DNA from: Chloroflexota bacterium
GTDB lineage: Bacteria; Chloroflexota; Limnocylindria; QHBO01
Assembly: GCA_038040195.1 (NCBI GenBank)
Contig: JBBPIR010000001.1
Span: 489,141 to 553,140 of the forward strand
Direction of reading: 5' to 3'
DNA: 64,000 bases
A model generated the notes under the pieces. That model saw only the letters and a list, made by a program, of their open reading frames with translations. It did no database searches and was not told where the DNA came from. Each line of letters opens with the position of its first letter. The first letter of the stretch is position 1. The translations under genes and the position numbers were made by a program. Below are positions 1 through 56,079 of the stretch, one piece after another.

Positions 1-39
1 CCGCTCGCGTTTCCGCACTGACCACGAGGGCTGCGTTCG

Positions 40-1005
40 TTGACCGATCCCCCCGCGCCTCCCGCTGATGAGCCCCTCCGCGGCGAGCTGGCAGACGAGC
101 TGACCGACGCCCTGCAGCGGGTTCCCGAGACAGCCGGTCGCGACCTCACCTTCGTCCCGCTCTCAGGCGGGATCACCAACCGCAACTTCCTGATCACGCT
201 GGCCGGCGAAGCCGATCGGTACGTCATCCGCCTGGCCGGGAACGACACCCACCTGCTCGGCATCAGCCGCGAGGTCGAGCACGCGGCCACCGTGGCCGCC
301 GCCGGGGTGGGCGTCGGGCCCGAGGTGGTGGCCTTCATCCGGCCCGAGGGCTACCTGGTGACGCGCTTCATCGTCGGCACCCCGGTCTCCCTGGAACAGG
401 TCCACGACCCGGCGACCCTGGCCCGCGTGGCGGACTCCATCCGCCGCATCCATGGCGGCCCGGCCATCCCCGGCCTGTTCGTCCCGCTGCGCGTGGCCGA
501 GGCCTATCGCGCACTGGCGGCCGCGCGCGGCGTCCCCGATCCCGCGGACTGGGAGGCGGCCTACGCCGCCGGCCGCCGGATCGAGCGGGCCCTCCTCGAC
601 GCTCCGCTGCCCCTCCATCCGTGCCACAACGACCTGCTCAACGCGAACTTCATCGACGATACGGAGCGGATCCGAATCGTGGACTGGGAGTACGCCGGGA
701 TGGGCGATCCCTTCTTCGACCTGGGCAACTTCAGCATCAACCACGAGCTGACCGCCGACGAGGATGCGGCGCTCCTGTCCGCCTACGACCGGACCGATGT
801 GCCCGATCCCGCCCGCCTGGCGCGAGTGGCCCTGATGCGGGTGGTCTCCGACTTCCGCGAGGCGATGTGGGGCGTCCTCCAGCAGGCCATCAGCACCCTC
901 GACGTGGACTTCGTCGAGTACGCCGACGGGCATTTCGCGCGCCTGCTGCGCCACGCGGCGGAGCCACGCTTCGAGCGGGCCTTGACCGAGGTCGAGGGTG
1001 GCTGA
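40..1005 (+). CDS. Phosphotransferase of the APH / choline-ethanolamine kinase fold
   Basis: 321-aa ORF. HNDLLNANFI and DWEYAGMGDPFFDLGN motifs are typical of this kinase fold. The start codon at 40 is TTG and uncertain. 8-nt overlap with the next gene. Confidence 0.7.
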   Translation: MTDPPAPPADEPLRGELADELTDALQRVPETAGRDLTFVPLSGGITNRNFLITLAGEADRYVIRLAGNDTHLLGISREVEHAATVAAAGVGVGPEVVAFIRPEGYLVTRFIVGTPVSLEQVHDPATLARVADSIRRIHGGPAIPGLFVPLRVAEAYRALAAARGVPDPADWEAAYAAGRRIERALLDAPLPLHPCHNDLLNANFIDDTERIRIVDWEYAGMGDPFFDLGNFSINHELTADEDAALLSAYDRTDVPDPARLARVALMRVVSDFREAMWGVLQQAISTLDVDFVEYADGHFARLLRHAAEPRFERALTEVEGG

Positions 1006-3424
1006 CGCCGTCCGGGTGGTCATCATCGGGGGCGGCGTCGGCGGCACGGCCATCGCCTACCACCTGGCGCGGCTGGGCTGGACCGATGTCGCCCTGGTCG
1101 ATCGGGCCGAGCTGACATCGGGATCGACGTTCCACTCGGCCGGCCTGGTGGGGCAGCTGCGGGCCAGCCCGACCCTGACCCGGATGATGGTCGACTCGGT
1201 GGCCACCTACCGCCAGCTGGCCGCCGAGACCGGGGTCGACCCCGGCTGGCGGGAGGTCGGTTCCCTCCGCCTGGCGTCTTCGCCGGAGCGGATGGAGGAG
1301 CTGCGCCGCCAGGCCGGTTGGGCCAAGGCCTACGGCCTGGAGATGGAGCTCGTGTCGGCCGATGAGGCTCACCGGCGCTTTCCGCTCATGTCGACCGACG
1401 GCGTCCTGGGCGCCGCGTGGCTGCCCACCGATGGCTATCTCGACTCTTCGGGCCTGACCCAGGCCCTGGCCGCCGGCGCCCGCCAGAACGGGGTGTCCAT
1501 CCGGGCCCGGACCCGGGTGACGGGGATTGCCGTCGAGCGTGGGCACGTGACCGGCGTCGAGACCGAGGAGGGGCCGATTCGATGCGAGGTGGTCGTCAAC
1601 GCCGGGGGCATGTTCGCGCCCGAGATCGGCCAGATGGCGAATGTGACGGTGCCCAGCATCCCGTTCGCGCACCAGTACCTGGTGACCGAGCCGATTGCCG
1701 GCGTCACGGCCGACCTGCCGCAGCTGCGCGACCCGGACAACCTGGTGTACTTCCGGCCCGAGGTGGCCGGGCTGGTCATGGGCGGCTACGAGCGGAATCC
1801 GGCGGCCTGGGGCCTGGACGGGATCCCGGCCGACTTCAATGGCAAGCTCCTGCCGCCGGACTGGCCGCGATTTGAGGAGATCAGCCGCGGCGCGCAGCGG
1901 CGCGTGCCCGCCATGGCCGAGGCCGGAGTCCGACAGGTCGTCAACGGCCCGGAGGCCTTCACGCCCGACAACGAGTTCATCCTCGGCGAGTCCGAGGTGC
2001 GCGGGTTCTTCGTGGCGGCCGGCTTCTCGGCCCACGGGATAGCCGGCGCTGGCGGGGTCGGTCGCCAGTTGGCCCGCTGGATCGTGGACGGGGAGCCGGA
2101 GTACGACCTGTGGAAGATGGACATCCGCCGCTTCGGGGCCCAGTACCGCTCGCGTGACTACACCCTGGCACGCGCTCACGAGAACTACGCGACGTACTAC
2201 GACATCCATTACCCGAAAGAGGAGCGCCAGTCGGCCCGCCCGCTGTGGATGTCCCCGACCTACTCCCGGCTGACGGAGCTGGGCTGCGCGTTCGGCGAGA
2301 AGTCGGGCTGGGAGCGGCCGAACTGGTTCGACGCCAACGCCCCGGCCGGCGACGAGTCCCTTCGCCCGCGGGGCTGGGCCGGAATGCACTGGTCGCCCGC
2401 CATCGGCGCCGAGCACCAGGCCACCCGTCAGACCGCCGCCCTGTTCGACGAGACGAGCTTCTCGAAGATCGAGATCAGCGGCCCAGGCGCGCTGGCCTTG
2501 CTCCAGCGCCTGTGCGACAACGACGTCGACCGGGCGGTGGGCCGCATCACCTACACCCAGATGCTGAACCGGCGGGGCGGGATCGAGTGCGACTTCACGG
2601 TGACCCGGCTGGGAGAGGATCGGTTCTTCATCGTCACCGGCACGGCCTTCGGCAACCACGACCTGGGCTGGATCCGCTCGCATGCGCCGAAGGACGGATC
2701 GGTCCAAGTGGCAGACGTCACCTCCGCCTGGGCGTGCCTGGGCATGTGGGGCCCGCGAGCCCGCGACATCCTGGCATCGGTGAGCGCGGATGACGTGTCG
2801 AACGAGGCGTTTCCGTACCTGACGGCGCGGAACATCTCGGTCGGGCAGGCGCCGGTGCAGGCGTTGCGAGTCACCTACGTCGGGGAGCTGGGCTGGGAGC
2901 TGTACACCCCCATGGAGCACGGGGCGGGGCTGTGGGACACGCTGTGGGCGGCGGGGCAGAGCCACGGGATGGTGGCCGGAGGCTATCGGGCCATCGACAG
3001 CCTGCGGCTGGAGAAGGGCTATCGGGTGTGGTCGAGCGACATCACCCCTGACGACAACCCCGACCAGGCGGGCCTGGGGTTCGCGGTGCGGATGAACAAG
3101 GCTGTCCCGTTCATCGGTCGCGAGGCGTTGCTGGCGGCACGCGACGCCGGCCTTGATCGGCGCCTGTGCTGCCTGGTGCTGGACGAGCCGTTGGCGGTGG
3201 CGCTGGGCAATGAGCCGATCCAGGTTGGGAGCGCGGTGGTGGGCCGGGTGACGAGCGGGGGCTACGGGTTCACGGTCGCGGCCAGCATCGCCTACGGCTA
3301 CCTTCCGGTGGAGCTGGGCGCGGTCGGCACCCGGGGCGAGGTCGAGGTCTTTGGGGAGTGGGTCGGCTGCACCGTGAGCGCCGAGCCGCTGTACGACCCG
3401 GAGGGGCTCCGGATCAAGTCCTGA
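998..3424 (+). CDS. FAD-dependent dehydrogenase fused to GcvT-like aminomethyltransferase domain (dimethylglycine/sarcosine dehydrogenase family)
   Basis: 808 aa. N-terminal VVIIGGGVGGTAIAYHLA dinucleotide fold. C-terminal T-protein-like folate-binding domain (GGYRAIDSLRLEKGY). GTG start at 998. Confidence 0.85.
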   Translation: MADAVRVVIIGGGVGGTAIAYHLARLGWTDVALVDRAELTSGSTFHSAGLVGQLRASPTLTRMMVDSVATYRQLAAETGVDPGWREVGSLRLASSPERMEELRRQAGWAKAYGLEMELVSADEAHRRFPLMSTDGVLGAAWLPTDGYLDSSGLTQALAAGARQNGVSIRARTRVTGIAVERGHVTGVETEEGPIRCEVVVNAGGMFAPEIGQMANVTVPSIPFAHQYLVTEPIAGVTADLPQLRDPDNLVYFRPEVAGLVMGGYERNPAAWGLDGIPADFNGKLLPPDWPRFEEISRGAQRRVPAMAEAGVRQVVNGPEAFTPDNEFILGESEVRGFFVAAGFSAHGIAGAGGVGRQLARWIVDGEPEYDLWKMDIRRFGAQYRSRDYTLARAHENYATYYDIHYPKEERQSARPLWMSPTYSRLTELGCAFGEKSGWERPNWFDANAPAGDESLRPRGWAGMHWSPAIGAEHQATRQTAALFDETSFSKIEISGPGALALLQRLCDNDVDRAVGRITYTQMLNRRGGIECDFTVTRLGEDRFFIVTGTAFGNHDLGWIRSHAPKDGSVQVADVTSAWACLGMWGPRARDILASVSADDVSNEAFPYLTARNISVGQAPVQALRVTYVGELGWELYTPMEHGAGLWDTLWAAGQSHGMVAGGYRAIDSLRLEKGYRVWSSDITPDDNPDQAGLGFAVRMNKAVPFIGREALLAARDAGLDRRLCCLVLDEPLAVALGNEPIQVGSAVVGRVTSGGYGFTVAASIAYGYLPVELGAVGTRGEVEVFGEWVGCTVSAEPLYDPEGLRIKS

Positions 3425-5809: not shown

Positions 5810-6805
5810 TCAGCCGCTCGCCGCCGCCGAGGCCGCGGAGGCTCCGAACGTCAACCCGCGCTCCAAGCCGGCCTGCACGACCTGATAGGCGATGAGGAGT
5901 TGCGTGAGCGCCAGCGGGTCGGAGTGCCGCTCCACGCTGCCGTCGAGGTAACTGCCGATCTCCCCGGGACGGAGGTGACGATGCGTCTCCATGTGCGCCC
6001 AGATTCGCTCATCGAGCTCGAGAGAGCGTGAGGGCGAAACCGCTCCGTCGATCTCCAGGATGGAAGCGCCCGTAGCGTCCGCCTCCTGCTCGAGGCGAAT
6101 CGGGGGTGGCTCGTCCGCGGCGGCGCTCGCCAACACGTCGCCGAGGTCGAGCCGAGGAAGCCCAGGGCCGAGCCTGAGACGCACGTTCAGATGGGCGTCG
6201 TGATCGACGGCGGTTCCGGCCCGGAAATAGCCGGCCGGTGGGTAGAACTGGACGAGCATATCGGCGTACGCGCGCTGGGGTGCGAGGTACCGCCGATGGT
6301 CATCGCGCCTGTCGACGATCTGGCGGATGACTTCCGGCACGCTGTATCCGCGCTCCGCGCAGTCCCGCTTAACCTTCCAGGCCCACTTCAGCTCCTCCTG
6401 CGGCTGCAGCCACACGCGAACATCAAACGCGTTTCGCAGGTTCGCGGTCATCAGCGGAAAGAGGCCGCGGATGACGACGATCTCGCGCGGCTCGACATCC
6501 TCGCGCTGGCCGAAGGTCCCCGTCGAGTGGTCATAAGTTGGCTTCGAGATGGTCTCGCCGCGTGCAACAGCGGCGACCTGTCGCGCCATGAGCTCAATGT
6601 CGTTCGCGGCCGGGTTGAGGGCGGTCACGCCGAGCCGCTTGCGCTCTGCTCGGTCCAGCTTGTGGTAATCGTCGAGGCACAGGTTGGTGATCCGCTCCGC
6701 GCCGAAGATCCGATACAGGCCCCTGACCAGCGTCGTCTTGCCGCTGCCGCTGTCGCCTCCCACGGCCACCATGATCGGGCGATGGAAGTTCGTCGCCGCC
6801 ATCAA
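5810..6805 (-). CDS. prk: Phosphoribulokinase (class II / cyanobacterial-archaeal type)
   Basis: 331 aa. P-loop VAVGGDSGSGKTTL, plus DDYHKLDR, KPTYDHSTG and KWAWKVKRDCAERGYS patterns of PRK. The start codon abuts the rbcL stop with no gap. Confidence 0.85.
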   Translation of the reverse strand: MMAATNFHRPIMVAVGGDSGSGKTTLVRGLYRIFGAERITNLCLDDYHKLDRAERKRLGVTALNPAANDIELMARQVAAVARGETISKPTYDHSTGTFGQREDVEPREIVVIRGLFPLMTANLRNAFDVRVWLQPQEELKWAWKVKRDCAERGYSVPEVIRQIVDRRDDHRRYLAPQRAYADMLVQFYPPAGYFRAGTAVDHDAHLNVRLRLGPGLPRLDLGDVLASAAADEPPPIRLEQEADATGASILEIDGAVSPSRSLELDERIWAHMETHRHLRPGEIGSYLDGSVERHSDPLALTQLLIAYQVVQAGLERGLTFGASAASAAASG

Positions 6806-8143
6806 TCAGAACCTCACGCCCGACCACAGGTCGAGCGCCTGGCGCAATTCGGGGCAGGTACGCGCCGCGTGCGCGAGCGTCTGCCCGGCGGCCACCGCCT
6901 CCACCGCAACCCGCGCGGCGGTGGCACCGGCCCGGCTGCCGCCCGGATGGCCGTGCACGCCTCCACCGAACAGGAAGAAGGCGTCCGTCCCGAAGACCTC
7001 GTCGAGCTGGGGAACGTGGCCCGGGTGCAACCCGCCTGAGGCGACGGGAACCAGGGGCTTGAGCTCGCCCCAGGCCTGGTCGAACAGCGTCCCACCCCCG
7101 GCCGGCGCGAACGCGGCGGTCATCATTCGACGCCGCTCGCCCATCTCCTGGATGGTTCCCTCCAGCTTCCCGACCCCGGTGCCGACGTGGACGTGGTCCG
7201 CGCCCATCAGCCGCGCCCACTTGGCGATGACCAAGAAGTCCACGCCGTGGTCGGGGTGGCGATCCATCACCGCATGCATCGCCCGATGCGCGTGCAGCGC
7301 CAGGCCCAGCCGCTCGGTCTCCGCACGCAGCGACGCAGTCGCCGCGAAACCCGCCGTCAGGAAGTCGACCATCACGAACCGGCCGCCCTCGTCGGCCACC
7401 AGGTTGGCGCGGCGAAGCATCTCGCTGGTCTCGGCGGCGGTGACGTTGGCCCAATAGCCCTTGCGCTCCCCGGTCTCGGCCTCCGCGCGTTGCACGAGCT
7501 CCAGTGTCCGCCGGATGCGCTCGTCGAACGGCGACCAAGCCTGACTGTTCAGGTTCTCGTCGTCCTTGACGGTGTCGATCCCGCCCCGCAGCGTCTCGTA
7601 GGCGCGCCGCGCATGCTCGGCGGGCGAGAGCCCCAGTTTGGGTTTGATGGTAGATCCGGTCATCGCCCGGCCATGAACGTTCAGCTTCTCCCGGACGCCG
7701 GAGATGCCGAACGCAGGCCCTGGGAACGATTCGACCAGGGGTAGGGGGATACGCATGTCGAGCAGGCGAAGCGCGCTCACCGCCTTGAACCCAAAAACGT
7801 TGCCCACCACGCTGGACAGGATGTTGGGGATGCTGCCGAACTCGAACAGGTCAATCGGGTACGCGATCAAGGCGACGTCGGCGGCGATCCGGTACACCCG
7901 CGCCCGGAGCTGGTAGGCCAGGCCCTCGTCATCCTCGCTCACCTCGGTCCAGGTCCCCGTCGAGGACTCGGCCGCCACCGCCGCCGCGGCCTCCTCCATC
8001 GAGGTGTCCTCACGCGGGGCGAGCTTGAACGCAACCAGCAAGTCAGTCGCGGCGGGAACGTAGTCGAGGGCCAGATACAGCTCTTGGTACGAATGAACCC
8101 CACTGGTCCGCTCAGGTCCCGTCTGCGTTGAAGGCTGGGTCAT
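6806..8143 (-). CDS. rbcL: Ribulose-1,5-bisphosphate carboxylase/oxygenase large subunit (bona fide, not RLP); form III-like or form I-prime-like
   Basis: 445 aa. All catalytic motifs are present: ESSTGTW, GNVFGFK, IKPKLG, GGIDTVKDDEN (carbamylated Lys), HAHRAMH, HVHVGT, GKLEG, SGGLHPG and FGGGVHGHP. No small-subunit gene is adjacent. Confidence 0.9.
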   Translation of the reverse strand: MTQPSTQTGPERTSGVHSYQELYLALDYVPAATDLLVAFKLAPREDTSMEEAAAAVAAESSTGTWTEVSEDDEGLAYQLRARVYRIAADVALIAYPIDLFEFGSIPNILSSVVGNVFGFKAVSALRLLDMRIPLPLVESFPGPAFGISGVREKLNVHGRAMTGSTIKPKLGLSPAEHARRAYETLRGGIDTVKDDENLNSQAWSPFDERIRRTLELVQRAEAETGERKGYWANVTAAETSEMLRRANLVADEGGRFVMVDFLTAGFAATASLRAETERLGLALHAHRAMHAVMDRHPDHGVDFLVIAKWARLMGADHVHVGTGVGKLEGTIQEMGERRRMMTAAFAPAGGGTLFDQAWGELKPLVPVASGGLHPGHVPQLDEVFGTDAFFLFGGGVHGHPGGSRAGATAARVAVEAVAAGQTLAHAARTCPELRQALDLWSGVRF

Positions 8144-8413
8144 GGCACCGTGGCTCCCTCTTCGCTTCCCATCTCAGGCCTCCCTACACCTCCGCGGCCG
8201 CGTTGAATTATGGTCAGCCTGAGTGCCCTCGGCAGGTTCGAACAGGGCCGTTCGTACCGAAAACGCCCCGGCAACGAACCTTCGCGACACAGGATCAGCC
8301 GCACCGGCAGCCGTTGTCCAACCGCGCCGGCTCCGGTGGTGAGCGTCAACAGGGGCTCTGACCGAACAAACGGTCGAGGTCAAAGCCTTCTGGCCTGGCT
8401 TCGTGCTCGATGT

Positions 8414-12738: not shown

Positions 12739-13710
12739 ATGTCCTCCGGCCGCGCCCTTTTCACGCGCTTTCCCGGTAATCCGATCATTCGTGCAGCCGA
12801 CCTTCCCTACGACGCGAACGCGGTCTTCAACCCGGGCGCAGCCGAGGTCAACGGTGAGACCGTCCTTCTCCTTCGCGTGGAGGACCTCCGCGGCATCAGC
12901 CACCTCACCGTTGCCCGCAGCCGGGACGGGGTCAGCGACTGGCGAATCAACAGTGAGCCGAGCTTGCGCTCCGCCCCGGTGCGGTACCCGGAGGAGGTGT
13001 GGGGCATCGAGGATCCGCGGCTGACGTGGCTTGAGGAGATGCAGGCCTGGGTGATCGCCTACACCGCCTACAGCCGGCGCGGCCCGCTCGTCTCCTTTGC
13101 ACGCACGGCCGACTTCCGATCCTTCCGGAGGTTTGGCGCGGCGCTTCTGCCGGAGGACAAGGACGCCGCCCTGTTTCCGCGGCGATTCGGCGGCCGATGG
13201 GCGGTCATCCACCGTCCGACGCCGGTGCACGGGAACGCGAGCATGTGGATCTCCTATTCGCCCGACCTACGCCACTGGGGCGATTTCAGCCTGCTCCTCG
13301 AGCCACGCGAGGGCGCGTGGTGGGACTCGGCCAAGATCGGGCTGGGACCCCCGCCGCTGGAGACCCCCGAGGGCTGGTTGGTCATGTACCACGGTAGTCA
13401 TCTCACGGCCAGCGGCGCCCTGTACCGGACTGGGCTCGCCCTGCTCGATCTCGAGGACCCCAGGACCGTCCTGCGACGCAGCGACGAATGGGTGATCGGG
13501 CCGACTGAGCCCTATGAGCGGGTCGGCGACGTGGGCGGCGTCGTCTTCCCGTGCGGCTGGGTGCTGCATCGGGCGACCAACGAGCTCCGCGTGTACTACG
13601 GCGCAGCCGATACGTCCGTCGCGCTCGCCACCGCGCGCCTGGACGATGTGCTCGAGTACCTGCGCAGCTCCCCCCGGCCGACGCCGCAGAGGCGCCGGGT
13701 GCGCCTCTAG
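12739..13710 (+). CDS. GH130 family glycoside hydrolase/phosphorylase (beta-mannoside-type)
   Basis: 323 aa. NPGAAEVNGETVLLLRVED, GIEDPRLTW, AYTAYS and DKDAALFPRRFGGRW patterns of GH130. Confidence 0.8.
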   Translation: MSSGRALFTRFPGNPIIRAADLPYDANAVFNPGAAEVNGETVLLLRVEDLRGISHLTVARSRDGVSDWRINSEPSLRSAPVRYPEEVWGIEDPRLTWLEEMQAWVIAYTAYSRRGPLVSFARTADFRSFRRFGAALLPEDKDAALFPRRFGGRWAVIHRPTPVHGNASMWISYSPDLRHWGDFSLLLEPREGAWWDSAKIGLGPPPLETPEGWLVMYHGSHLTASGALYRTGLALLDLEDPRTVLRRSDEWVIGPTEPYERVGDVGGVVFPCGWVLHRATNELRVYYGAADTSVALATARLDDVLEYLRSSPRPTPQRRRVRL

Positions 13711-16384: not shown

Positions 16385-16459
16385 CTGGAGCCGAAGGTGG
16401 GATTCGAACCCACGACCGACGGTTTACGAAACCGTTGCTCTACCCCTGAGCTACTTCGG
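16385..16459 (-). tRNA. tRNA-Thr (anticodon CGU), CCA encoded
   Basis: 75 nt, hand-folded cloverleaf. Acceptor GCCGAAG/CTTCGGC, anticodon stem ACGGT/ACCGT with loop TTCGTAA, T-arm GTGGGTTCGAATCCCAC, 3-prime TCCA. Confidence 0.9.
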
Positions 16460-17339
16460 CCCGATCGCCGGCCGATTTTAGCGCCTCTCCCTTTGCGCTC
16501 CCCAACCTGACCGAGGGCGGCGCCCAGCCGTGGAGCAGCTCGTCGTGGTAGCGCGGCCCGCGCTCCAGCGAACGGGGAATGGGGGCCATCCGCGCCTTTC
16601 CGCGCTGGACCAGGGCGAAGTACGGGCACAGGTCGGTGAGCGGGCACAGGCCGCAGATGGGGCGCGGGGCGCGGCACACCTCCCGCCCGTGGCGTATGAG
16701 CAGCACGTGCCCGGCGTACATGGCCTCGGGCGGCACCACTTCCTCCAGCAGGTCGTGGGCCCGGGTCAGGTCGGTCTTGGGCGGGAGCAGGCCCAGCCGG
16801 GAGGCGACTCGATAGACGTGGGTGTCGACCGGCAGCGCGGGCCGGCCGAACGCGAACAGGAGCACGATCGATGCCGTCTTGCGCCCAATCCCGGGCAGGC
16901 CCACCAGCCACTCGCGGGCCCGCTCGAGCGGCCACTCCCGCAGGTACCCGAGGTCCCAGGTCCCGTTCGTGGCGTCGTGGACCTCGGCCAGAACGAGCTG
17001 GATGCGGCGGGACTTGGTTGGGGCCAGCCCGCCGGGCCGGATGACGTCTGCCAGTTCGTCGGTCGGCGCAGCCAGCACGGCGTCCCACGACGGGTAGGCA
17101 GCCCGCAGGGCCACGAAGGCGCGGTGCGAATTCGTGTCGGCCGTGTTCTGGGCCAGCACGGTCAGGACCAGCTCCGCGACGGGGTCCAGCCGCGGACCGG
17201 ACCAGACCGGCATTCCGTATCGGTCAGCCAGGCGTTCCAGGATGGGACGGATGCGCGCGCGCCGCACGCGGCGCAGCGCGGCCAGCCGGCGGCGGTTGAC
17301 CCGCGATCGCACCCTGCGAGGTCGTGCGGCGTCCGTCAC
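16440..17339 (-). CDS. nth: Endonuclease III family DNA glycosylase (HhH-GPD with 4Fe-4S loop)
   Basis: HhH LPGIGRKTASIVLLFAFG, PVDTHVYRV, and Fe-S loop CRAPRPICGLCPLTDLC. The GTG start at 17339 forms a GTGA overlap with the upstream gene. The 3-prime 20 nt overlap the tRNA-Thr. Confidence 0.75.
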   Translation of the reverse strand: MTDAARPRRVRSRVNRRRLAALRRVRRARIRPILERLADRYGMPVWSGPRLDPVAELVLTVLAQNTADTNSHRAFVALRAAYPSWDAVLAAPTDELADVIRPGGLAPTKSRRIQLVLAEVHDATNGTWDLGYLREWPLERAREWLVGLPGIGRKTASIVLLFAFGRPALPVDTHVYRVASRLGLLPPKTDLTRAHDLLEEVVPPEAMYAGHVLLIRHGREVCRAPRPICGLCPLTDLCPYFALVQRGKARMAPIPRSLERGPRYHDELLHGWAPPSVRLGSAKGEALKSAGDRAEVAQG

Positions 17340-17623
17340 GCGGCTCCCAGCCTCGCGGTCTCGCGGGCATACCCGGCCCAGGCCCCGGCTCCGAGTCGCG
17401 AGGCCTGGCCCAGGTCGACGATCCGACCCCGACCATCCTGCCGCGTGGCCCACGCGTCCGCGTGGTCGGGTGAGCAGAGCAGCACGGTTGGGGTGCAGAA
17501 CTCGGCCCTCAAGTCCGTTCCGCCGGCGGCCAACCACAGGCGCTGGGGTGGCTCGGCCTCGGCCCCGATCGGTACCCGGAGCGTGAATGCGGTGCGCCGC
17601 ACGATCTCGTCGACGTCTCGCAC
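17336..17623 (-). CDS. Small hypothetical protein; C-terminal pattern loosely reminiscent of the MerB C-terminus
   Basis: 95 aa with GC3-rich codons. The GTG start lies 1 nt after the glxK stop and a GTGA overlap links it to nth. FCTPTVLLCSPDHADAWA...LGAG resembles the MerB C-terminal region from memory only. Confidence 0.35.
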   Translation of the reverse strand: MRDVDEIVRRTAFTLRVPIGAEAEPPQRLWLAAGGTDLRAEFCTPTVLLCSPDHADAWATRQDGRGRIVDLGQASRLGAGAWAGYARETARLGAA

Positions 17624-17624
17624 G

Positions 17625-18800
17625 TTAGCCTCGGCTCCCCAATCCCTGACCGATGTCGATGCTGCGCGCCAACCGGGCAGCCGCATTGGCCAGCAGGCGT
17701 TCGGTGTCGGCCATGGCGATTTCCAGGCCGAGTGGTCGATCGATGATGGGCTGCACCACGGCGAACGCCCCCGACTCCTCGACGATCTCGGCGCCTGGGC
17801 CCAGGCCGCCGCACAGCAGGACGACCGGGGCATTGCCGGCATGATGGGCCACCCCCAGCGCCGCCTTGCCGGCCAGGGTCTGCTCGTCGGCCCGCCCCTC
17901 CCCGGTGATGACCAGGTCCGCCCCCTCGCAGGCCGCCGCCAGGCCCACCAGGTCGGCCACGACCTCCACGCCGGAGCGCAGCTCGGCGGAGGTGAAGCCC
18001 AGCAGCCCGGCCGTTGTCCCGCCGGCCGCGCCGGCGCCTCGGACCTCCGCCACGTCGCGACCCGTCGCTCGTCGGATCTCGGCTCCCCAGCGCACCAGGG
18101 CCTCGTCCAGCTCGGCGACGGCGTCGGGGTCCGCGCCCTTCTGCGGCCCGTAGCTCGCGGCTGCGCCGTTCGGCCCGGTCAGGGGGTTGGTGACGTCGGA
18201 AGCGATCAGGATCTCGACCTCGGCCAGCCGCGGATCGAGCCCGTCGGCGTCGACGTGGTCCAACGTCGCCAGGGCCGCGCCGCCGTCCGGCACCTGGCCC
18301 CCGCGGGCGTCGAGCAGCCGGAGCCCCATCTCGACCAGCAGCCCCGCCCCGCCATCGGTGGTGGCCGATCCGCCAAGGCCAACCACGATCCGTCCCGTGC
18401 CGGCATCCAGCGCCGCCGCGATGAGCCGTCCCGACCCCCGGGTCGTGGCCAACCGAGCACTGGTCGACGTCCGCTCCGCCAAGGCCAGCCGCGCCAGCCC
18501 GCTGGCCGCCGCCATCTCCACGAACCCCGTTGCACCGCCGTCGAGCGCCAGCCAGTCCGCGCTGATCGGCCGGCCCAGGGGATCGGTCGTCATCACCGTG
18601 TTCCGGGTGGCCGCGCTTCCCCGAGCTGCGGCGATCGCGGCCAGGGTCCCCTCGCCCCCGTCCGCCATCGGGATCTTCACCACCACATCGTCGGGCCGCG
18701 CCGAGGCCCAGCCGCGGGCCATGGCCTCGGCGACCGCCACCGAGTCCAGCGCACCCCCGAACGAGTCGGGAGCCACGACCACGCGCAGCGGCGGGCTCAT
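17625..18800 (-). CDS. glxK: Glycerate kinase (GlxK/GarK family)
   Basis: 391 aa. VVVAPDSFGG, MADGGEGT, ITGEGRADEQTLAGKA patterns. Confidence 0.85.
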   Translation of the reverse strand: MSPPLRVVVAPDSFGGALDSVAVAEAMARGWASARPDDVVVKIPMADGGEGTLAAIAAARGSAATRNTVMTTDPLGRPISADWLALDGGATGFVEMAAASGLARLALAERTSTSARLATTRGSGRLIAAALDAGTGRIVVGLGGSATTDGGAGLLVEMGLRLLDARGGQVPDGGAALATLDHVDADGLDPRLAEVEILIASDVTNPLTGPNGAAASYGPQKGADPDAVAELDEALVRWGAEIRRATGRDVAEVRGAGAAGGTTAGLLGFTSAELRSGVEVVADLVGLAAACEGADLVITGEGRADEQTLAGKAALGVAHHAGNAPVVLLCGGLGPGAEIVEESGAFAVVQPIIDRPLGLEIAMADTERLLANAAARLARSIDIGQGLGSRG

Positions 18801-20707
18801 CGGGAAAGCTCCTTGCGCCTCGCGAGGTAGGCGGGGATCGTGTTCATCGGCGGTCGAATCTCGTCCCCCACCTCGCGGACCTCCAGGCTGAATTTGTCAC
18901 CTTCCTGGCGGATCTGCTTCATCCGCTCGCCCATGTCGGTCAGCAGCTCAATCCGCTGACGCTCCTCCAGCTTGGTGATCCCGGCCTTGAGGATGACAAA
19001 GGCCATCCGCGACAGGTCCAGCAGCGACTGGTTGCGATGGATGCGGCGCTCGAGGTCGACCTGCCCGATGCCGGACAGGCCGACGCGGTCCAGGATGTCG
19101 ATGAGCAGCCCGATCTCGACCGCGTAGCCGGTGAAGAACGGCACCGACTCGAGGAGCGCGCGACGCCCCGCGTACTCCCCGGCCAGGGGTTGGATGATGC
19201 CGGACAGCTCGGGGAAGAACAGGTTGATGAGCGGGCGAGCGGTCAGCTCTGTCACCCGTCCGCCCTCGTCGGGCTGGCGCCGCCCGCCAGCCGTCAGGGG
19301 CCGTTGGTAGAAGGCCTTCACGTAGTGGATCCGCGACTCGCGCAGGAGCGGGCCCAGCAGGCCGTACACGAAGCGAGGCTGGATGTTGCGGATGTCGGTG
19401 TCGACCCAGACCACGATGTCCCCGCGCAGCTCGTACAGGCTCTTCCACAGCGCTTCGCCCTTGCCGACGTGGCTCCCCAGCTCCGGGAGGATGGTGTCGT
19501 GCTGGCGGACGGGTGCCCCCAGCTCGCGGGCGATCTCCACCGTTCGGTCGGTGGAGGCCGAGTCGATGACGAGCAGCTCGTCCACCAACGGCACGCGGTC
19601 CATGAGCGCATCGCGAATGCGACGGATGACCAGCCCGATGGTCTTCTCTTCGTTCAGGGTCGGTAGTCCCACGCTGATGGTCAGGCCCTGGCGCTCCTTG
19701 AGGTCCACCAGGCGCTTGAGGTCGCGAAATTCGCTGGTGTCGAACGTGTTCTCGGCAAACCAGCGGTCGACCACGCTCGGCAGGCTGCGGGTCTGCTCGA
19801 TGGCGGCGTCCGCGGCGGGCAGGCTTCCGGTCTCGGCCCGGAGATGTTCGAAGGTGACTGCGGTGAACGGTTGTCGGGTCTTGACCACCATCACGGTTGG
19901 CTTGGCGCGGCTGGCGACTGTCTCCGCCAGCCGCCCGAACAGGCGCCGGCCCGATCCGGCTCCGGTCGGCTGGGCAGAGGCCCCGACCACAACCAGGTCG
20001 TGGTTCGCGGCCTCTTGCAGGATGGCGCCCCGAACGGTCGGCGCCTCCACCAGCAGCTGGCGGACCTTGACCCCTCGGGTATTACGCCTGACCAGGCGGC
20101 CAAGCGCCGCCCGCTCGTCCTCGAGCGCGGCCGAGCCACCCTCGGGCGGGACCACGTGCAGAACGACCAGCTCAGCGCCGAAGCCGCGCGCCAGGTCGGT
20201 GGCCAGCGAGAGCGCCAGCTCGGCATTCGGACCTCCCCGAACCGGGACCAGGATGGAGCGGACGGTTCCCAGTGCGCGCTGCTTGACCACGGCGATATCG
20301 CATGGGGCCTCACGGACGACCTGGTCAATGGTGGTCGAGAAGACCGCGTGCCGCAGGCCGGTCGGTTGGGGGCCGCCCCAGCCGAAGACCACCAGGTCGG
20401 CCCCGATCTCGGCCACCGCCTCCACGATCCCCTCCGACGCCTGGCGGCCGATGCGGACCGCGGTATGGACCTCGACCGACGCGTCGTCCCGGAAGTCAGG
20501 CACCCGCTGGAGCAGGCGGCGGGCCTGGCGCGCGCGGCTGGCGCCCTCCGCCAGCGACACGCCCTCGGGGACCTCGACGATGCCCAGCGCGGTGATCTCG
20601 GTGGGCCGCCGGTGGGCGAGGTGGGAACCGATGCGGATCAGGTCGCGCGCGGTGCGCGGGTTGGCCAGCGGCATGAGGACCCGATACGGACCACGCCGGC
20701 GGGCCAT
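18797..20707 (-). CDS. gpgS: Tandem universal-stress-protein domains fused to glucosyl-3-phosphoglycerate synthase (GT81)
   Basis: 636 aa. The N-terminal ~300 aa have two Usp-like repeats (DLVVFGWGG, DLVVVGAS). The C-terminal ~320 aa align motif by motif with mycobacterial GpgS as I recall it (PTLNEE, GKGEALW, DTD, GGRVTEL, QPLAGEY, GYAVEIGLLID). Confidence 0.8.
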   Translation of the reverse strand: MARRRGPYRVLMPLANPRTARDLIRIGSHLAHRRPTEITALGIVEVPEGVSLAEGASRARQARRLLQRVPDFRDDASVEVHTAVRIGRQASEGIVEAVAEIGADLVVFGWGGPQPTGLRHAVFSTTIDQVVREAPCDIAVVKQRALGTVRSILVPVRGGPNAELALSLATDLARGFGAELVVLHVVPPEGGSAALEDERAALGRLVRRNTRGVKVRQLLVEAPTVRGAILQEAANHDLVVVGASAQPTGAGSGRRLFGRLAETVASRAKPTVMVVKTRQPFTAVTFEHLRAETGSLPAADAAIEQTRSLPSVVDRWFAENTFDTSEFRDLKRLVDLKERQGLTISVGLPTLNEEKTIGLVIRRIRDALMDRVPLVDELLVIDSASTDRTVEIARELGAPVRQHDTILPELGSHVGKGEALWKSLYELRGDIVVWVDTDIRNIQPRFVYGLLGPLLRESRIHYVKAFYQRPLTAGGRRQPDEGGRVTELTARPLINLFFPELSGIIQPLAGEYAGRRALLESVPFFTGYAVEIGLLIDILDRVGLSGIGQVDLERRIHRNQSLLDLSRMAFVILKAGITKLEERQRIELLTDMGERMKQIRQEGDKFSLEVREVGDEIRPPMNTIPAYLARRKELSR

Positions 20708-22008
20708 CAGCCCGGCCCCCCGACCTTTCCCCCGGCCGACTGCGCCTGCCAGGCGCGGACCAGCCAGGGCTTGAGGTCCTCGAACTCGCGGGCCTGGCTC
20801 TCGACCAGCCGTTCGGCCTGCTCATCGGTCATCTCACGAGCCTCATTGAAGAAGCCCGCGGTACGCCCGAAGTACAGCCCGGTCAGGCCCGCCAGCAGCG
20901 CGTCGCGGTCGATGCCCGGCCGTTGAAAGGCGAGCAACGCGTCGTAGAGGCAGCGGATCCAGAGCTCCGAGGGGAAGGTGAAGGCCGCAGGGTCCTCGGC
21001 AGGCAGCGCCAGCACCCGTTCCAGCTGCTCCCCGGCCAGGGTCCGCTTCCACACCTGGCGCTGGGCCAGGCGCGCGGTCTCGAACGCGTCCACGAGCTTG
21101 GCCTGGTTGACCGTTATCGCCTCTGGCAGCACCACCCGCTCGAAGCCGTACTCGGGAACCGGCTGCGAGCCGCGGACCGGGAGCCACGCCTCGGACATCG
21201 AGCCAGCCAGCCGGAACAGGGTGCCGACCACCTGCCGGAACATGGGTCCCAGGTCAGAGGCGGGATCCTTGGGGTCGTGGATCTTGGCCCCCAGCCTGGT
21301 CTGGCACACCGCAAACCCGGCGGCCAGGGCGTGGTGAGTCATCCAGACGTCGATCCCGAACTTCGCCGTGGCCTCGTCCCAGTCGTCGAGTTCCAGCAGG
21401 GCGTTGACCAGGTCGCGGCTGAAGGCGAACTCGCCCCCGATCGGCTGGCGCATCCGCCGCCCATACAGGGTCCGCGTCAGGGGGTAGGCGATCTGGTTGG
21501 TGATGGTCCCGTCGAACTTGTGGCGCGCGTACAGAGGGGCCACGTAGTCGTAGCCGCCCTTCAGGATCGGACCCGCCAGCAGCTCTATCCACTCGGGCAC
21601 GATGCTCCGCAGGTCGGAGTCGACCAGCACCAGGGCCTCGACCTTCAGCTCGCGGGCGACCTCCAGCAGCGCCCGGACGGCGGACCCCTTGCCGCTCGGC
21701 CCGCGGTAGGTGACCGCGACCCGTCGCAGCCGATGCGGCGGCCGGACCAGGATCATCTTTTCGAGGTAGGCGGGGCTCTCCGTGCTGACCGCCACCCGTG
21801 GCGTGTCGTCGGGCGATCCCCCGTCGGCGTTGACCAGGACCGGCTTCAACTCCGGGAAGTACTGGACCATGCCGGCCATGGCGGCCCGGACGACGTAACC
21901 GATGGTGTCGGCGTTGCCGAAGCTGGGGATCCCGACCATGAGGTCCGCCTGGCCGACCCCCCGCACTGCGGACCGACCGCGCGCATCGAGGGCGGAGGCG
22001 ACGCTCAC
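20707..22008 (-). CDS. GT-A glycosyltransferase resembling mannosylglycerate/glucosylglycerate synthases (GT78-like)
   Basis: 433 aa. GIPSFGNADTIG, GKGSAVRAL, VDSDLRSI, QPIGGEFAF and FGIDVWM parallel the Rhodothermus MGS motif order as recalled. The GTG start at 22008 forms a GTGA overlap with the upstream gene. Confidence 0.55.
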   Translation of the reverse strand: MSVASALDARGRSAVRGVGQADLMVGIPSFGNADTIGYVVRAAMAGMVQYFPELKPVLVNADGGSPDDTPRVAVSTESPAYLEKMILVRPPHRLRRVAVTYRGPSGKGSAVRALLEVARELKVEALVLVDSDLRSIVPEWIELLAGPILKGGYDYVAPLYARHKFDGTITNQIAYPLTRTLYGRRMRQPIGGEFAFSRDLVNALLELDDWDEATAKFGIDVWMTHHALAAGFAVCQTRLGAKIHDPKDPASDLGPMFRQVVGTLFRLAGSMSEAWLPVRGSQPVPEYGFERVVLPEAITVNQAKLVDAFETARLAQRQVWKRTLAGEQLERVLALPAEDPAAFTFPSELWIRCLYDALLAFQRPGIDRDALLAGLTGLYFGRTAGFFNEAREMTDEQAERLVESQAREFEDLKPWLVRAWQAQSAGGKVGGPG

Positions 22009-22703
22009 CGGGTGATCTCGCGCTTCTTGCGTCCCTTCCAGAACAGGCCGGTCACGCCGGGGTGCCGGTCTGGGTCGATGGTGATGATGATCCAGTCCTC
22101 GTTCGACGTCCCGGGCCGGTAGCGCGAGTTGGCGTGCTTGGCCACCGCGCGGCTGAATCCGTTCTCCTGCCAGGCGTGGAACCACGACCGGAGTGGCATC
22201 TTGATCGAGGGCGTGACCCGCAGCCGAACACTCTCGCTGACCACCCCCGACAGGAGGCGGCGGCGCTCCTGGTACGGGTGCTCACCCAAGAACTGCCCGT
22301 CCAGCTCGATGAGGTCGACGACCACGAATGCGCGCCGCTTCTCCAGCTGCGCGGGATCGGGTCCGTCCTCGGGCAGATCGCCGGCCTCGTCGGCCAGCGC
22401 TTCGGACCAGCGTTCGGCCGCCGATCCGCGACCCAGGAACGGCTGTGCGGTCCAGATCCCGTCCAGCACCGCCTGGTCGGCGTCGACCGAGGTCCGCAGC
22501 ACCTCGGCCAGGTCGCCGTAGAACTCGTCGACGGCGTGTCCGCCGGCATCGGTCAGGCGAATTTCGCCGTCCGCGACGCGAGCCAGCAGCCGTTCCCCGA
22601 TCCAGTACGGCTCGAACGACCAATGCGGACTGTTGATTCCGACGCTCGCCTCGGTGGCGAGCTGGGGGCGGATCGGCTCGTCGCCCAAGGGCTGATCGGT
22701 CAT
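22005..22703 (-). CDS. LigD/ATP-dependent-DNA-ligase-like nucleotidyltransferase domain with catalytic residues substituted (pseudo-ligase)
   Basis: 232 aa, collinear with the ligase motifs. Motif I reads EPYWIGER instead of E-x-K-x-D-G-x-R. Motif III reads VLDGIW (no Glu). Motif IV reads GFSRAVAK and motif V reads WIIITI (no Lys). ATGA overlap with the helicase gene. Confidence 0.55.
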   Translation of the reverse strand: MTDQPLGDEPIRPQLATEASVGINSPHWSFEPYWIGERLLARVADGEIRLTDAGGHAVDEFYGDLAEVLRTSVDADQAVLDGIWTAQPFLGRGSAAERWSEALADEAGDLPEDGPDPAQLEKRRAFVVVDLIELDGQFLGEHPYQERRRLLSGVVSESVRLRVTPSIKMPLRSWFHAWQENGFSRAVAKHANSRYRPGTSNEDWIIITIDPDRHPGVTGLFWKGRKKREITR

Positions 22704-23968
22704 CGGTACAGGCCCAGCTCCCCCTCTTCGACCTCCATGCCCACCTCGGACCGGATGGCCTGCCACGCGTCGAGATCCCACTCGGCGACGAACGTGATGG
22801 CCGTGCCGGCACGCCCCATTCGCGCCGTGCGACCCACCCGGTGGACGTAGGTGTCCGCGTCCTCGGGGATGTCGTAGCTCAGGACGTACGGCAGGTCGGT
22901 GATGTCCAGCCCGCGGCTGGCGACATTGGTGGCCACCAGGAACTGGATCTCCCCCGCCTTGAAAGCGGCCAGCGTCTTCTCCCGCTCCCGCTGGGACAGG
23001 CCGCCATGGAGGGCGGCCGCGTTCCTGCCCCGCCGCTTGAGCGAGGCGCTCAGCCGATCCACGCCGATCTGGGTATGGCGGAAGATGAGGAGCCGATCGA
23101 ACCCGAACCCATCGGCCAGCTCAATCAGGGCCGCCACTTTGTCCTGCTCGGCCACGAAGTAGACCATCTGGCGGACCGTTTCGACCAACTTCAGCTCGGG
23201 ACGGACCGCGATGTGGTCCGCGTCGCGGCGCATGAACCGATCGCAGATGCGGAGGATGGCGTACGGCATGGTGGCGCTGAACAGCGCCGTCTGGCGTTGG
23301 CGCGGGCAGCGGGCCAGGATCGTCTCCACGTCCACGATGAAGCCCATGTCCAACATCCGGTCGGCCTCGTCGAGGATCACGGTCCGCACCGATTCCAGGC
23401 GCAGCTCCCCTCGACGGATGAGGTCGAGAACGCGCCCCGGGGTGCCGATCACGACTTGCGCTCCGCGCTGGAGGGCGGTGATCTGGCGGTCCATGGCCGC
23501 TCCGCCGTAGATGGCCACCGTCTTGACGTTCCGGAAGCGCCCGATGCGGGCGATCTCGGCGGTGACCTGCTGGCACAGCTCCCGGGTGGGGGTCAGGATC
23601 AGGGCCTGGACCGATTTCGAGCCGGGGTCCACGTGCTCGACGATGGGGATCCCGAACGCGGCCGTCTTGCCCGTCCCGGTCTGGGCCTGACCGATGAGAT
23701 CGTGGCCCGCCCGGAGGGGCGGAATAGCCCGGGCCTGGACCTCGGTGGGCGTGACGTAGCCCATCTGCTCCAGGGCGCGGGCGATGGTGACCGGGACCTC
23801 GATGTCCCCGAACCGATACCCGGCCGCAGCGGCCATCACGGCCGCAGTCAGCGCGGAGAGGGGTTCGGCAGTCGGTTCGGCGGTGGGCTGGCGGCCGTCG
23901 GTGTGCGGCGGCGGGACCGGCGCGCGGCGACGCGTTCGGCGACGGGGCGTGGTCGGGGTTGGCGGCAA
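22700..23968 (-). CDS. DEAD-box ATP-dependent RNA helicase
   Basis: 422 aa. Q-motif TPTEVQ, AQTGTGKT, PTRELC, DEAD, SAT, ARGLD and HRVGRTAR. Confidence 0.9.
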   Translation of the reverse strand: MPPTPTTPRRRTRRRAPVPPPHTDGRQPTAEPTAEPLSALTAAVMAAAAGYRFGDIEVPVTIARALEQMGYVTPTEVQARAIPPLRAGHDLIGQAQTGTGKTAAFGIPIVEHVDPGSKSVQALILTPTRELCQQVTAEIARIGRFRNVKTVAIYGGAAMDRQITALQRGAQVVIGTPGRVLDLIRRGELRLESVRTVILDEADRMLDMGFIVDVETILARCPRQRQTALFSATMPYAILRICDRFMRRDADHIAVRPELKLVETVRQMVYFVAEQDKVAALIELADGFGFDRLLIFRHTQIGVDRLSASLKRRGRNAAALHGGLSQREREKTLAAFKAGEIQFLVATNVASRGLDITDLPYVLSYDIPEDADTYVHRVGRTARMGRAGTAITFVAEWDLDAWQAIRSEVGMEVEEGELGLYR

Positions 23969-53802: not shown

Positions 53803-54168
53803 ATGACCCTTCAGCCCGCCGACTCGATCGCCACCCGCGACCTCCGCCTGCTGCGCGACCTGTACCGCGCCCTGGCCGACCCCACCCGGCTCCGCATCTG
53901 CGCCATCCTGGGCGAGTCGGGGCCGCTCCCCGTCAATGAGCTGTCGGCTCGATTCGGCCTCTCTCAGCCGCTCATCAGCTGGCACCTGCGGATCCTGCGC
54001 ACGGCGGGGCTGGTGGAGATGCGGCCCCACGGTCGCGAGAAGCTGTGCGCCCTGCGACCCGCCGCCTTCGCGGCGCTGACCGCCGCCCAGCAACGCCTGG
54101 TGGCAGGTGACCTGCGCGTGGCCGCCACCCAAGGGTTGGATGCGGGAGGCGTGCTTCGTGTCCGCTGA
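53803..54168 (+). CDS. ArsR/SmtB family transcriptional regulator
   Basis: 121 aa. LADPTRLRICAILGE...VNELSARFGLSQPLISWHLRILRTAGLV winged HTH. Confidence 0.85.
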   Translation: MTLQPADSIATRDLRLLRDLYRALADPTRLRICAILGESGPLPVNELSARFGLSQPLISWHLRILRTAGLVEMRPHGREKLCALRPAAFAALTAAQQRLVAGDLRVAATQGLDAGGVLRVR

Positions 54169-54832
54169 CCCAACGCCCCGGGGCGATGCGCTCCTCTCGG
54201 CCCGGCTCAAGGAAGCGGGTCGGGTGGCCGTTGCGCCGGTGGTGAATGTCCTGGCCGCGGCGGGGGTCTCCCCCAACTCGGTCACGGTCTCCGGCCTGAT
54301 CCTGGTCGCCGCGGCCTCGCTCCTGGTGTGGCAGCGATCCCTGCTCCTGGGCGCGGTGTTCCTGGCCGTGGGCGCGAGTCTGGACGCCATCGACGGCGGC
54401 CTGGCCCGAGCCCAGGGCGGCGCCACGCCCTTCGGGGCGTTCCTGGACAGCACCCTGGACCGCACCGGGGAAGCCCTCGTCTACCTGGGCATCGTCGCCT
54501 TCTGGCTGGATCGCACCGCGCAACCCTTCGTGCCGGTCATGCTGGCCGCCCTCGCCCTGAGCGGTTCGTTCCTGGTCAGCTACTCGCGGGCGCGGGCCGA
54601 GGCCGCCGGATTCACCGCCTCCAACGGCTTGGCGCCCCGACCCGAGCGGCTGATCATCCTGGTCCTGGGCCTGGCGCTGGCCGGGCTCGGCCATTCCATC
54701 GCTCTGATCGTGGCGATGGGTCTCATCGCCATCCTCGCCTGGGCGACTGTCGCCCAGCGTATCTGGAACGTTCGTCAGCAGGCGGCTTCCGCCGCCCTGC
54801 CTGCCCCCATCGGTCAAGACAAGGAGATCTGA
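54158..54832 (+). CDS. pgsA: CDP-alcohol phosphatidyltransferase (phosphatidylinositol phosphate synthase-like)
   Basis: DAIDGGLAR...[13 protein letters not shown] matches the D-x2-D-G-x2-A-R...D-x3-D motif. The GTG start at 54158 has GGGAGG 8 nt upstream. 11-nt overlap with the ArsR-family gene. Confidence 0.8.
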
Positions 54833-54837
54833 ACATC

Positions 54838-56055: not shown

Positions 56056-56079
56056 AGGTTTGGCTGAGGGCGTCCGCCC

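Follow-up and report, generated by a model that had tools for sequence, protein, structure and literature searches.

What does a bacterium make with an operon in which GpgS, the synthase of glucosyl-3-phosphoglycerate, fused to universal stress protein (USP) domains, is encoded between a second glycosyltransferase and a glycerate kinase? The question is raised by a minus-strand gene run in a 64,000-nucleotide stretch of contig JBBPIR010000001.1 (assembly GCA_038040195.1, positions 489,141 to 553,140), which was analyzed at its full length and which we refer to as the window. Its GC content is ~70%, and the proteins encoded in it have their nearest homologues in metagenome-assembled genomes (MAGs) of Candidatus Limnocylindria, phylum Chloroflexota. 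This class is abundant in soils and fresh water but has no cultured members, and next to nothing is known about how its cells respond to stress. An earlier note on this DNA had suggested that the cluster combines a two-step and a one-step route to a glyceryl glycoside. We assign a probability of roughly 60% to the reading that the run is a class-wide Limnocylindria operon that makes and recycles a hexosyl-glycerate compatible solute through two entry reactions.

A coupled gene block is conserved across Limnocylindria

We compiled the gene list by open reading frame (ORF) calling guided by GC content at third codon positions (GC3), combined with family scans against Pfam and NCBIfam. Four consecutive genes, encoding a ligase-like protein, a 433-aa GT-A glycosyltransferase (GT), the USP::GpgS fusion and a glycerate kinase (Table 1), run into one another: the stop codon of the ligase-like gene and the GTG start of the GT gene share GTGA, the GT stop and the ATG start of the fusion share 1 nt as TGATG, and the fusion stop and the start of the kinase gene share ATGA. 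Since all three stop/start junctions overlap, the four genes are, as judged from these overlaps, translationally coupled. An Rfam search of the window for a riboswitch ahead of the operon, for example one for cyclic di-AMP, returned a tRNA as its sole match.

The same arrangement was looked for in 80 species-level genomes, which were the best 80 of a genome scan with the neighboring GT and which all belong to the Limnocylindria lineage. The order of genes for the ligase-like protein, GT, USP-GpgS, glycerate kinase and HhH-GPD DNA glycosylase was kept in essentially all 80 where the contig extends far enough; GT identity across these loci ranges from 50 to 98%. The kinase gene (glxK) follows gpgS wherever the contig extends, the HhH-GPD gene comes next after glxK in almost every locus of sufficient length, and a ligase-like gene encoding 230-260 aa lies upstream of the GT in most of them (L006-L085). 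Because this order recurs in essentially all genomes with long enough contigs, the arrangement is far beyond chance.

A tandem USP module is fused to a GT81-type GpgS

The earlier note had described a tandem USP extension of ~300 aa at the N-terminus of GpgS, and family models bear this description out. Pfam Usp (PF00582) matched the N-terminal part of the fusion in two stretches (E 1.2e-26, best stretch 9-142), and the GpgS model NF010496 matched residues 313-625 over profile positions 5-306 of 307, with 386.8 bits versus a cutoff of 262. More than 120 database clusters, drawn from JGI, ENA, NCBI and Logan assemblies, span ~100% of the 636 aa at 66-99% identity, and the USP and GpgS parts lie in a single uninterrupted frame in 75 of the 79 informative species-level Limnocylindria genomes. 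Given these full-length clusters and the shared frame, the junction between the two parts is real and is not an assembly artefact, which the earlier note had raised as a concern. The four loci in which the two parts do not share a frame (L030, L037, L058 and L064) come without exception from Microflora Danica (MFD) MAGs, and frameshift errors are a more probable cause than split genes.

When the C-terminal part was aligned to the Rubrobacter xylanophilus MpgS/GpgS structure 3f1y, the GT81 motifs GKGE, DTD, GGRVTE, PLAGE, VEIG and HRN were all present, and in an alignment of 70 fusion sequences (the window and 69 loci) each showed conservation of at least 95%. They cover the equivalents of the PGK lysine, the DxD, the GGRVTE acceptor loop, the PLxGE loop, Glu232 and His258, whose roles are described in PMC2581804. 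Searches against the PDB gave 252.9 bits for 3f1y and 245.1 bits for 7p5l, the GpgS of M. hassiacum. By these matches, the C-terminus of the fusion is a predicted GT81 glucosyl/mannosyl-3-phosphoglycerate synthase of the actinobacterial type. Like the actinobacterial GT81 enzymes (Rv1208 of M. tuberculosis and that of M. hassiacum) and Rubrobacter 3f1y, it carries all catalytic and 3-phosphoglycerate-binding motifs (245-253 bits); unlike them, it bears the ~300-aa tandem USP extension and is encoded in an operon with a predicted one-step enzyme and a glycerate kinase. Our literature search returned no paper joining GpgS with a universal stress protein, and we did not find a description of the USP::GpgS architecture and kinase-containing operon, conserved class-wide.

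The upstream glycosyltransferase resembles mannosylglycerate synthase in its predicted fold

The 433-aa GT was harder to place from its primary sequence. The Pfam model for mannosylglycerate synthase (MGS), MGS_GT (PF21969), matched it only marginally (29.8 bits versus a gathering score of 27), and a precomputed PF21969 match was found only in the closest 21 listed homologues (P0001-P0021, 79-95% identical). It scored 57.5 bits against the GpgS model, which is below threshold, and its PDB matches included GpgS at E ~1e-8 and MGS at 9e-6. Identity to the MGS of Rhodothermus marinus (GT78; PDB 2bo4, 2y4j-m) is only 15-18%, and by sequence this GT is equally near GT81 GpgS and R. marinus MGS. Its homologues have equal length, and a profile of the family matched GpgS over the catalytic domain only, while the same profile matched MGS over residues 36-359, C-terminal helical domain included.

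A first AlphaFold model, built from a shallow alignment of sequences of 70-95% identity, reached a predicted local distance difference test score (pLDDT) of 50 and was discarded. A second model, to which homologues of ~45% identity had been added by profile search, reached a pLDDT of 89.9, and the best eight Foldseek matches to this predicted model were all MGS. The protein is accordingly modeled as two domains, with a GT-A catalytic domain followed by a predicted C-terminal helical domain.

The active site of MGS could be followed residue by residue. Lys76 of MGS corresponds to K107 of the 433-aa GT, Asp100/Asp102 to D130/D132, Ile138-Thr139 (which hold the glycerate carboxylate) to I169-T170, the PLGGE loop to PIGGE, Asp192 to D220 and His217 to H244. 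In addition, R162 is invariant and aligns with MGS Arg131, which we take to be a further glycerate ligand. The catalytic and acceptor residues that MGS and GpgS share are invariant in 81 sequences of the family. In both enzyme types these residues serve as metal and glycerate-carboxylate ligands (PMC2581804).

The acceptor region separates the two enzyme types. The segment R162-T170 aligns without gaps to MGS R131-T139, whereas GpgS has a longer, flexible loop there, followed by GGRVTE, for which the 433-aa GT has DGTITN. Because the acceptor loop is of MGS length and DGTITN stands in place of GGRVTE, we infer that the acceptor would be free D-glycerate rather than 3-phosphoglycerate. The enzyme is thus modeled as an MGS-fold, predicted single-step NDP-hexose:D-glycerate glycosyltransferase (nucleoside diphosphate, NDP) of the MGS type or of the glucosylglycerate synthase (Ggs) type. 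The MGS/Ggs likeness that the earlier note saw in its motif order is backed by predicted fold, catalytic residues, acceptor loop and gene context, and the same fold, residues and loop place the enzyme with MGS and not in an unrelated GT2 clade.

Relatives of the upstream glycosyltransferase adjoin gpgS and channel genes in other lineages

The family of the 433-aa GT comprises ~600 clusters at 50% identity (E <1e-30), with members in Acidobacteriota, Nitrospirota, Thermodesulfobacteriota, Thermotogota and some archaea, and several relatives carry the JGI/NCBI name "glucosylglycerate synthase." Outside Chloroflexota, we sampled five loci from four lineages (L004, L005, L086, L087 and L088), including Nitrospiraceae, Blastocatellales and Syntrophaceae; one is a JGI metagenome contig without a taxon label. 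A full-length GpgS of the Methanococcoides/Persephonella type is encoded just upstream of the Ggs-like gene in 5/5 loci (377.6 bits to NF040724 for the L005 protein, with copies 58-59% identical in the other four). A HAD-IIB phosphatase resembling GpgP, the phosphatase of glucosyl-3-phosphoglycerate, or its mannosyl counterpart (MpgP) is present in three of the five (L005 copy, TIGR02461 236.6 bits), and directly downstream of the Ggs-like gene all five carry a gene for an MscS-like mechanosensitive channel of ~235 aa. Locus L005 has three further MscS genes close by. This linkage of the Ggs-like family to two unrelated GpgS types and to osmotic-release channels is strong guilt-by-association evidence for synthesis of a glucosylglycerate-type osmolyte. 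When 20 representatives of the family, chosen as diverse or AT-rich, were looked up in their clusters, none of the entries was from Aquificota.

Since the 433-aa GT is of the MGS/Ggs type and its family clusters with GpgS/GpgP genes elsewhere, a pair of one-step and two-step enzymes is the best reading of the two transferases. The two-route cluster of the earlier note is therefore well supported as far as this enzyme pair goes, although the design itself was already known: dual one-step/two-step pathways are documented for glucosylglycerate (GG), mannosylglycerate (MG) and mannosylglucosylglycerate (MGG) in Persephonella marina, R. marinus and Petrotoga mobilis (PMC3736172). In P. marina, a single-step Ggs (EC 2.4.1.268) is found alongside the two-step GpgS/GpgP pathway (Fernandes et al. 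2007, cited in PMC3736172), and in R. marinus the two routes to MG are controlled separately by stress (PMC3736172). The new part of the present locus is the USP fusion and the kinase-containing operon.

The ggs, gpgS and gpgP genes of P. marina reportedly form one operon. As in that organism, a one-step glycerate glycosyltransferase and a glucosyl-3-phosphoglycerate synthase appear to be encoded together here, offering two routes to the same solute class, and relatives of the 433-aa GT in Blastocatellales, Syntrophaceae and Nitrospiraceae show comparable GpgS(-GpgP)-Ggs-like layouts. Unlike in P. marina, the GpgS of the window is of the actinobacterial GT81 type rather than the Methanococcoides/Persephonella type and has tandem USP domains at its N-terminus, there is no phosphatase gene, and the third position belongs to a gene for glycerate kinase.

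Glycerate kinase and the phosphatase of the two-step route

The gene directly downstream of gpgS encodes a glycerate kinase, as the earlier note had read it (PF02595, 397.7 bits; TIGR00045, 369.6 bits versus a cutoff of 168). Models for its regiochemistry gave 275.2 bits for a 3-kinase and 274.4 bits for a 2-kinase, both far below their own cutoffs. The proposal that this enzyme interconverts the two acceptor pools needs correction, as glycerate kinase runs from glycerate to phosphoglycerate only, by general thermodynamics; the kinase can draw glycerate away from the one-step route into the acceptor pool of the two-step route and not the reverse. A role in glycerate salvage has precedent, since glucosylglycerate phosphorylase genes are often accompanied by genes for glycerate kinase, GpgS or GpgP (PMC7178133). 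The present operon resembles these GH13_18 phosphorylase clusters in that a glycerate kinase gene lies near a GpgS or GpgP gene, which implies glycerate salvage, and differs from them in that no phosphorylase or hydrolase gene was found in the block or among the window genes examined.

No phosphatase gene accompanies gpgS here, as the earlier note had observed. A six-frame scan of the 64-kb window for the motifs DxD[GN]T and RHG[EQ] found neither in a plausible phosphatase ORF; there were only two matches, one within an ORF of 958 aa and the other within an ORF of 118 aa that is not in the GC3-based gene list. A HAD-IIB MpgP/GpgP-like protein from a related operon (236.6 bits to TIGR02461), used as a tblastn query, had no match in either the window or the 80 related loci. 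Treating this absence as a distinctive feature of the cluster was an overstatement. With GpgS of the actinobacterial type, which is not clustered with its phosphatase, a missing phosphatase gene is normal. In mycobacteria, GpgP belongs to the histidine phosphatases, is not linked to GpgS and long escaped sequence searches (PMC3240985).

About a dozen loci of a Limnocylindrales clade of ~55% identity (L024, L030, L033, L038, L041, L042, L044, L046, L049, L053, L064 and L067) carry an additional ORF of ~180-200 aa between gpgS and glxK, at ~9.3-10.2 kb in locus coordinates, with the shared motifs NPNSPHRAEIGKV...RRxGxG...FWKDLR. We considered this insert as a candidate for the missing phosphatase and rejected it, as the L049 copy gave weak matches to the GNAT family. 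The GNAT-like product could acylate the solute or could be unrelated to it.

The USP domains depart from the canonical ATP-binding motif

The earlier note had called the USP domains nucleotide-binding, which is unproven. USPs of the MJ0577 type bind ATP through the canonical motif G-2x-G-9x-G-[ST]. When the first domain (USP1) was aligned to the USP structures 4wny and 3s3t, of which 3s3t was deposited as a UspA-family protein that binds nucleotides, its corresponding region was seen to read GWGG-x10-F-S-T, and the Phe is invariant in the 70 fusion sequences. The region of the second domain (USP2), as read from the translation and the conservation line, is GASA...FGR, and the start of this domain (residues 150-188) aligns weakly to USP structures. 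Because neither domain conforms to G-2x-G-9x-G-[ST], the canonical ATP site is, as far as the motifs tell, not intact in either, although non-canonical binding is possible. By column conservation, USP1 varies little within the class, and USP2 varies more. That USP1 is so strongly conserved speaks for a function under selection, and the simplest candidate is regulation of the enzyme to which it is attached.

A model with two entry reactions and recycling of glycerate

In the model that we favor, a hexosyl-glycerate solute is made by two entry reactions and its glycerate is recycled. The GT81 domain of the fusion would combine NDP-hexose with 3-phosphoglycerate to give hexosyl-3-phosphoglycerate, from which an unlinked phosphatase would then strip the phosphate, while the upstream MGS-fold enzyme would join NDP-hexose and free D-glycerate directly. 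Glycerate kinase would send free glycerate, whether from solute breakdown or from other sources, back to the phosphoglycerate pool, and would thereby limit the one-step route and supply either glycolysis or the two-step route. The tandem USP at the N-terminus would be a regulatory domain particular to this lineage, adjusting GpgS activity in response to a signal of stress or energy state. A bolder form of this model, which we hold as tentative and rather doubtful, makes the tandem USP a ligand-gated allosteric switch in GpgS that operates by binding a nucleotide, second messenger or metabolite of the pathway in a non-canonical pocket and that, together with glycerate kinase, sets the split of carbon between the phosphorylating and the direct routes throughout the class. 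If it were true, such a switch would amount to enzyme-level stress control of compatible-solute synthesis. To our knowledge, and without a search aimed at this point, no enzyme-level stress control has been described for sugar-glycerate pathways.

Several observations weigh against the two-entry operon. The enzyme roles are all predicted, and the 433-aa GT is likened to P. marina Ggs indirectly, through the names of its relatives and gene clustering. The two-step route is incomplete as seen, with a phosphatase found in neither the window nor the 80 related loci, and the block lacks any hydrolase or phosphorylase by which glycerate would be released. The canonical ATP motif is missing from both USP domains. 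The donor sugar is ambiguous, as judged from the sugar-binding loops of both transferases (PLAGE in the fusion, as in Rubrobacter, and PIGGE in the 433-aa enzyme, near the PLGGE of MGS). Finally, the ligase-like and DNA-glycosylase genes are as well conserved in the block as the genes for the proposed pathway.

The ambiguity of the donor bears on an alternative in which the two transferases make different products, for example a mannosylglycerate osmolyte by the MGS-fold enzyme and, by USP-GpgS, a glucosyl-3-phosphoglycerate primer for a glucosylglycerate-based oligo- or polysaccharide resembling mycobacterial methylglucose lipopolysaccharide (MGLP) or for MGG. The closest structure to the 433-aa enzyme is indeed a mannosyltransferase, the glycine of its PIGGE loop has been tied to mannose tolerance (PMC2581804), and actinobacterial GpgS starts the synthesis of MGLP and not of an osmolyte (PMC2581804, PMC3240985). 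The catalytic domain of the fusion scored nearly the same to the dual-specificity Rubrobacter enzyme and to M. hassiacum GpgS, and its loop is that of the Rubrobacter enzyme and not the PLSGE of M. tuberculosis, whose serine has been proposed to exclude mannose (PMC2581804). The P-x-GGE loop does not decide the sugar, however, because M. hassiacum GpgS, a glucosyltransferase, has PLGGE, and by these loops the product of the operon may be either glucosylglycerate or mannosylglycerate. A PimA-like GT4 gene and a GH130 gene just past the block, in this window only, would fit separate products, but a tRNA gene stands between them and the block, and almost none of the related genomes has them. Moreover, relatives of the 433-aa GT are named glucosylglycerate synthase, and members of the family are encoded together with GpgS and GpgP, as is stated for the dual GG pathway of Persephonella. 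We therefore consider separate products unlikely.

A second alternative is that the genes share a neighborhood without sharing a function, with the kinase serving general glycerate/glyoxylate metabolism and co-transcription reflecting genome compactness. The equal conservation of the flanking genes means that synteny here need not indicate a shared pathway, and the same block retains a ligase-like pseudo-enzyme and a DNA glycosylase, neither of them obviously connected with solutes. The gpgS-glxK junction is also interrupted in part of the class, by the GNAT-like ORF in the loci read and, in L012, L014, L016 and L017, by other sequence of 1.6-2 kb. Glycerate kinase is nonetheless a known companion of GG genes (PMC7178133), and both transferases are predicted to use glycerate-type acceptors while the kinase uses glycerate, a three-way match that is unlikely by chance. 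Together with the overlapping junctions on either side of gpgS and the linkage of the Ggs-like family to a different GpgS type in other lineages, this leaves a functionally mixed block distinctly improbable.

Some Leloir transferases are reversible. It is nevertheless very improbable that the MGS-fold enzyme acts mainly in breakdown, converting hexosyl-glycerate and NDP to NDP-hexose and glycerate with the kinase pulling the reaction so that the operon would pair synthesis (USP-GpgS) with recovery (GT and kinase), because, even though the block has an invariably linked glycerate kinase and no solute hydrolase or phosphorylase, there is no evidence for reversibility, the characterized relatives MGS and Ggs are described as synthases (PMC3736172, PMC2581804), and in other lineages the family adjoins synthesis genes with no kinase.

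The two-entry operon thus remains our preferred reading, and its conservation throughout the class leads to the prediction that Limnocylindria cells accumulate glucosyl- or mannosylglycerate. Two cloneable enzymes are available to test this prediction, and USP::GpgS offers a simple system for determining what USP domains sense, as its output is a measurable enzyme activity. The gain is incremental in that two routes and glycerate salvage are already established elsewhere.

Genes flanking the solute genes

The coordinates of the block and its neighbors are collected in Table 1.

Table 1. Features of the conserved block and adjoining genes, in window positions.
Feature	Positions	Strand	Basis
DEAD-box helicase	22700-23968	-	
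Ligase-like protein, 258 aa; LigD-like adenylation domain without OB domain	22005-22781	-	PF01068 34 bits; aligned to LigD ligase domains 6nhx and 1vs0
GT-A glycosyltransferase, 433 aa, GTG start	20707-22008	-	Pfam MGS_GT; MGS-fold model
Tandem USP::GpgS fusion, 636 aa	18797-20707	-	Pfam Usp and NF010496
USP domain 1, residues 9-142	20282-20683	-	Pfam Usp best stretch; aligned to 4wny and 3s3t
USP domain 2, residues ~149-277 (estimated boundaries)	19877-20263	-	Second Pfam Usp stretch
GT81 catalytic domain of fusion, residues 313-625	18833-19771	-	NF010496 386.8 bits
Glycerate kinase, class I GlxK/GarK family, 391 aa	17625-18800	-	PF02595, TIGR00045
HhH-GPD base-excision DNA glycosylase, Nth-like	16440-17537	-	PF00730; NF053634 165.6 bits
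tRNA-Thr(CGT), distal limit of conserved block	16386-16460	-	Rfam match
GT4 protein, 794 aa	13707-16091	-	
GH130 gene, converging on the minus-strand run	12739-13710	+	

Motif I of the ligase-like protein reads YWIG instead of KxDG. Since the catalytic lysine of this motif is lost, the protein is probably a catalytically inactive pseudo-enzyme. Upstream of it, the DEAD-box helicase gene is also kept in closer relatives, and genes for GalE and a CCA-adding enzyme lie further upstream in the three loci read with gene calls. At the other end of the block, the HhH-GPD ORF overlaps the tRNA-Thr(CGT) gene with its last ~20 nt and encodes 365 aa, with an N-terminus ~90 aa longer than in its relatives (270-277 aa).

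Past the tRNA gene, we considered the GH130 and GT4 genes as candidates for MGG enzymes (MggS/MggA-like). The GH130 protein is of the TM1225/beta-mannoside-phosphorylase type and the GT4 protein is weakly PimA-like, with the PimA-like domain confined to residues ~100-400 of its 794 aa and no Pfam match in the C-terminal ~390 aa. Both genes were excluded from the system, given the intervening tRNA gene and their absence from nearly all related genomes (GT4 in 1/80 related loci, GH130 in 0/80), and our literature search returned no paper tying GH130 to MGG.

Other genes of the window

Three further groups of genes in the window are of separate interest. A gene for a 455-aa RuBisCO large subunit adjoins a phosphoribulokinase gene (5810-8173, minus strand); it scored 560 bits to NF003252 and 485.5 bits to the type III model, just under the cutoff of 497, and no small-subunit ORF was found among the adjoining ORFs of the GC3-based list. 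These matches suggest a form III-like or small-subunit-less module for CO2 fixation or nucleotide salvage in a Limnocylindria genome. At 54080-59979 on the plus strand, phosphatidylinositol-phosphate synthase-like, PIM-acyltransferase-like and GT4 genes stand in a row, an arrangement that suggests synthesis of a phosphatidylinositol mannoside (PIM)-type glycolipid in a Chloroflexota genome.

Lastly, a choline/ethanolamine-kinase-like gene (22-1005, plus strand) is followed by an 812-aa ORF (986-3424, plus strand) with an FAD-binding motif at its start, as seen by eye. In L001, a choline-kinase-like gene adjoins a gene for an 808-aa FAD/FAO_M/GCV_T protein resembling dimethylglycine or sarcosine oxidase, which may be the counterpart of the 812-aa ORF. 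If this candidate relationship holds, the same neighborhood would contain a further osmolyte-related function, of the betaine type.

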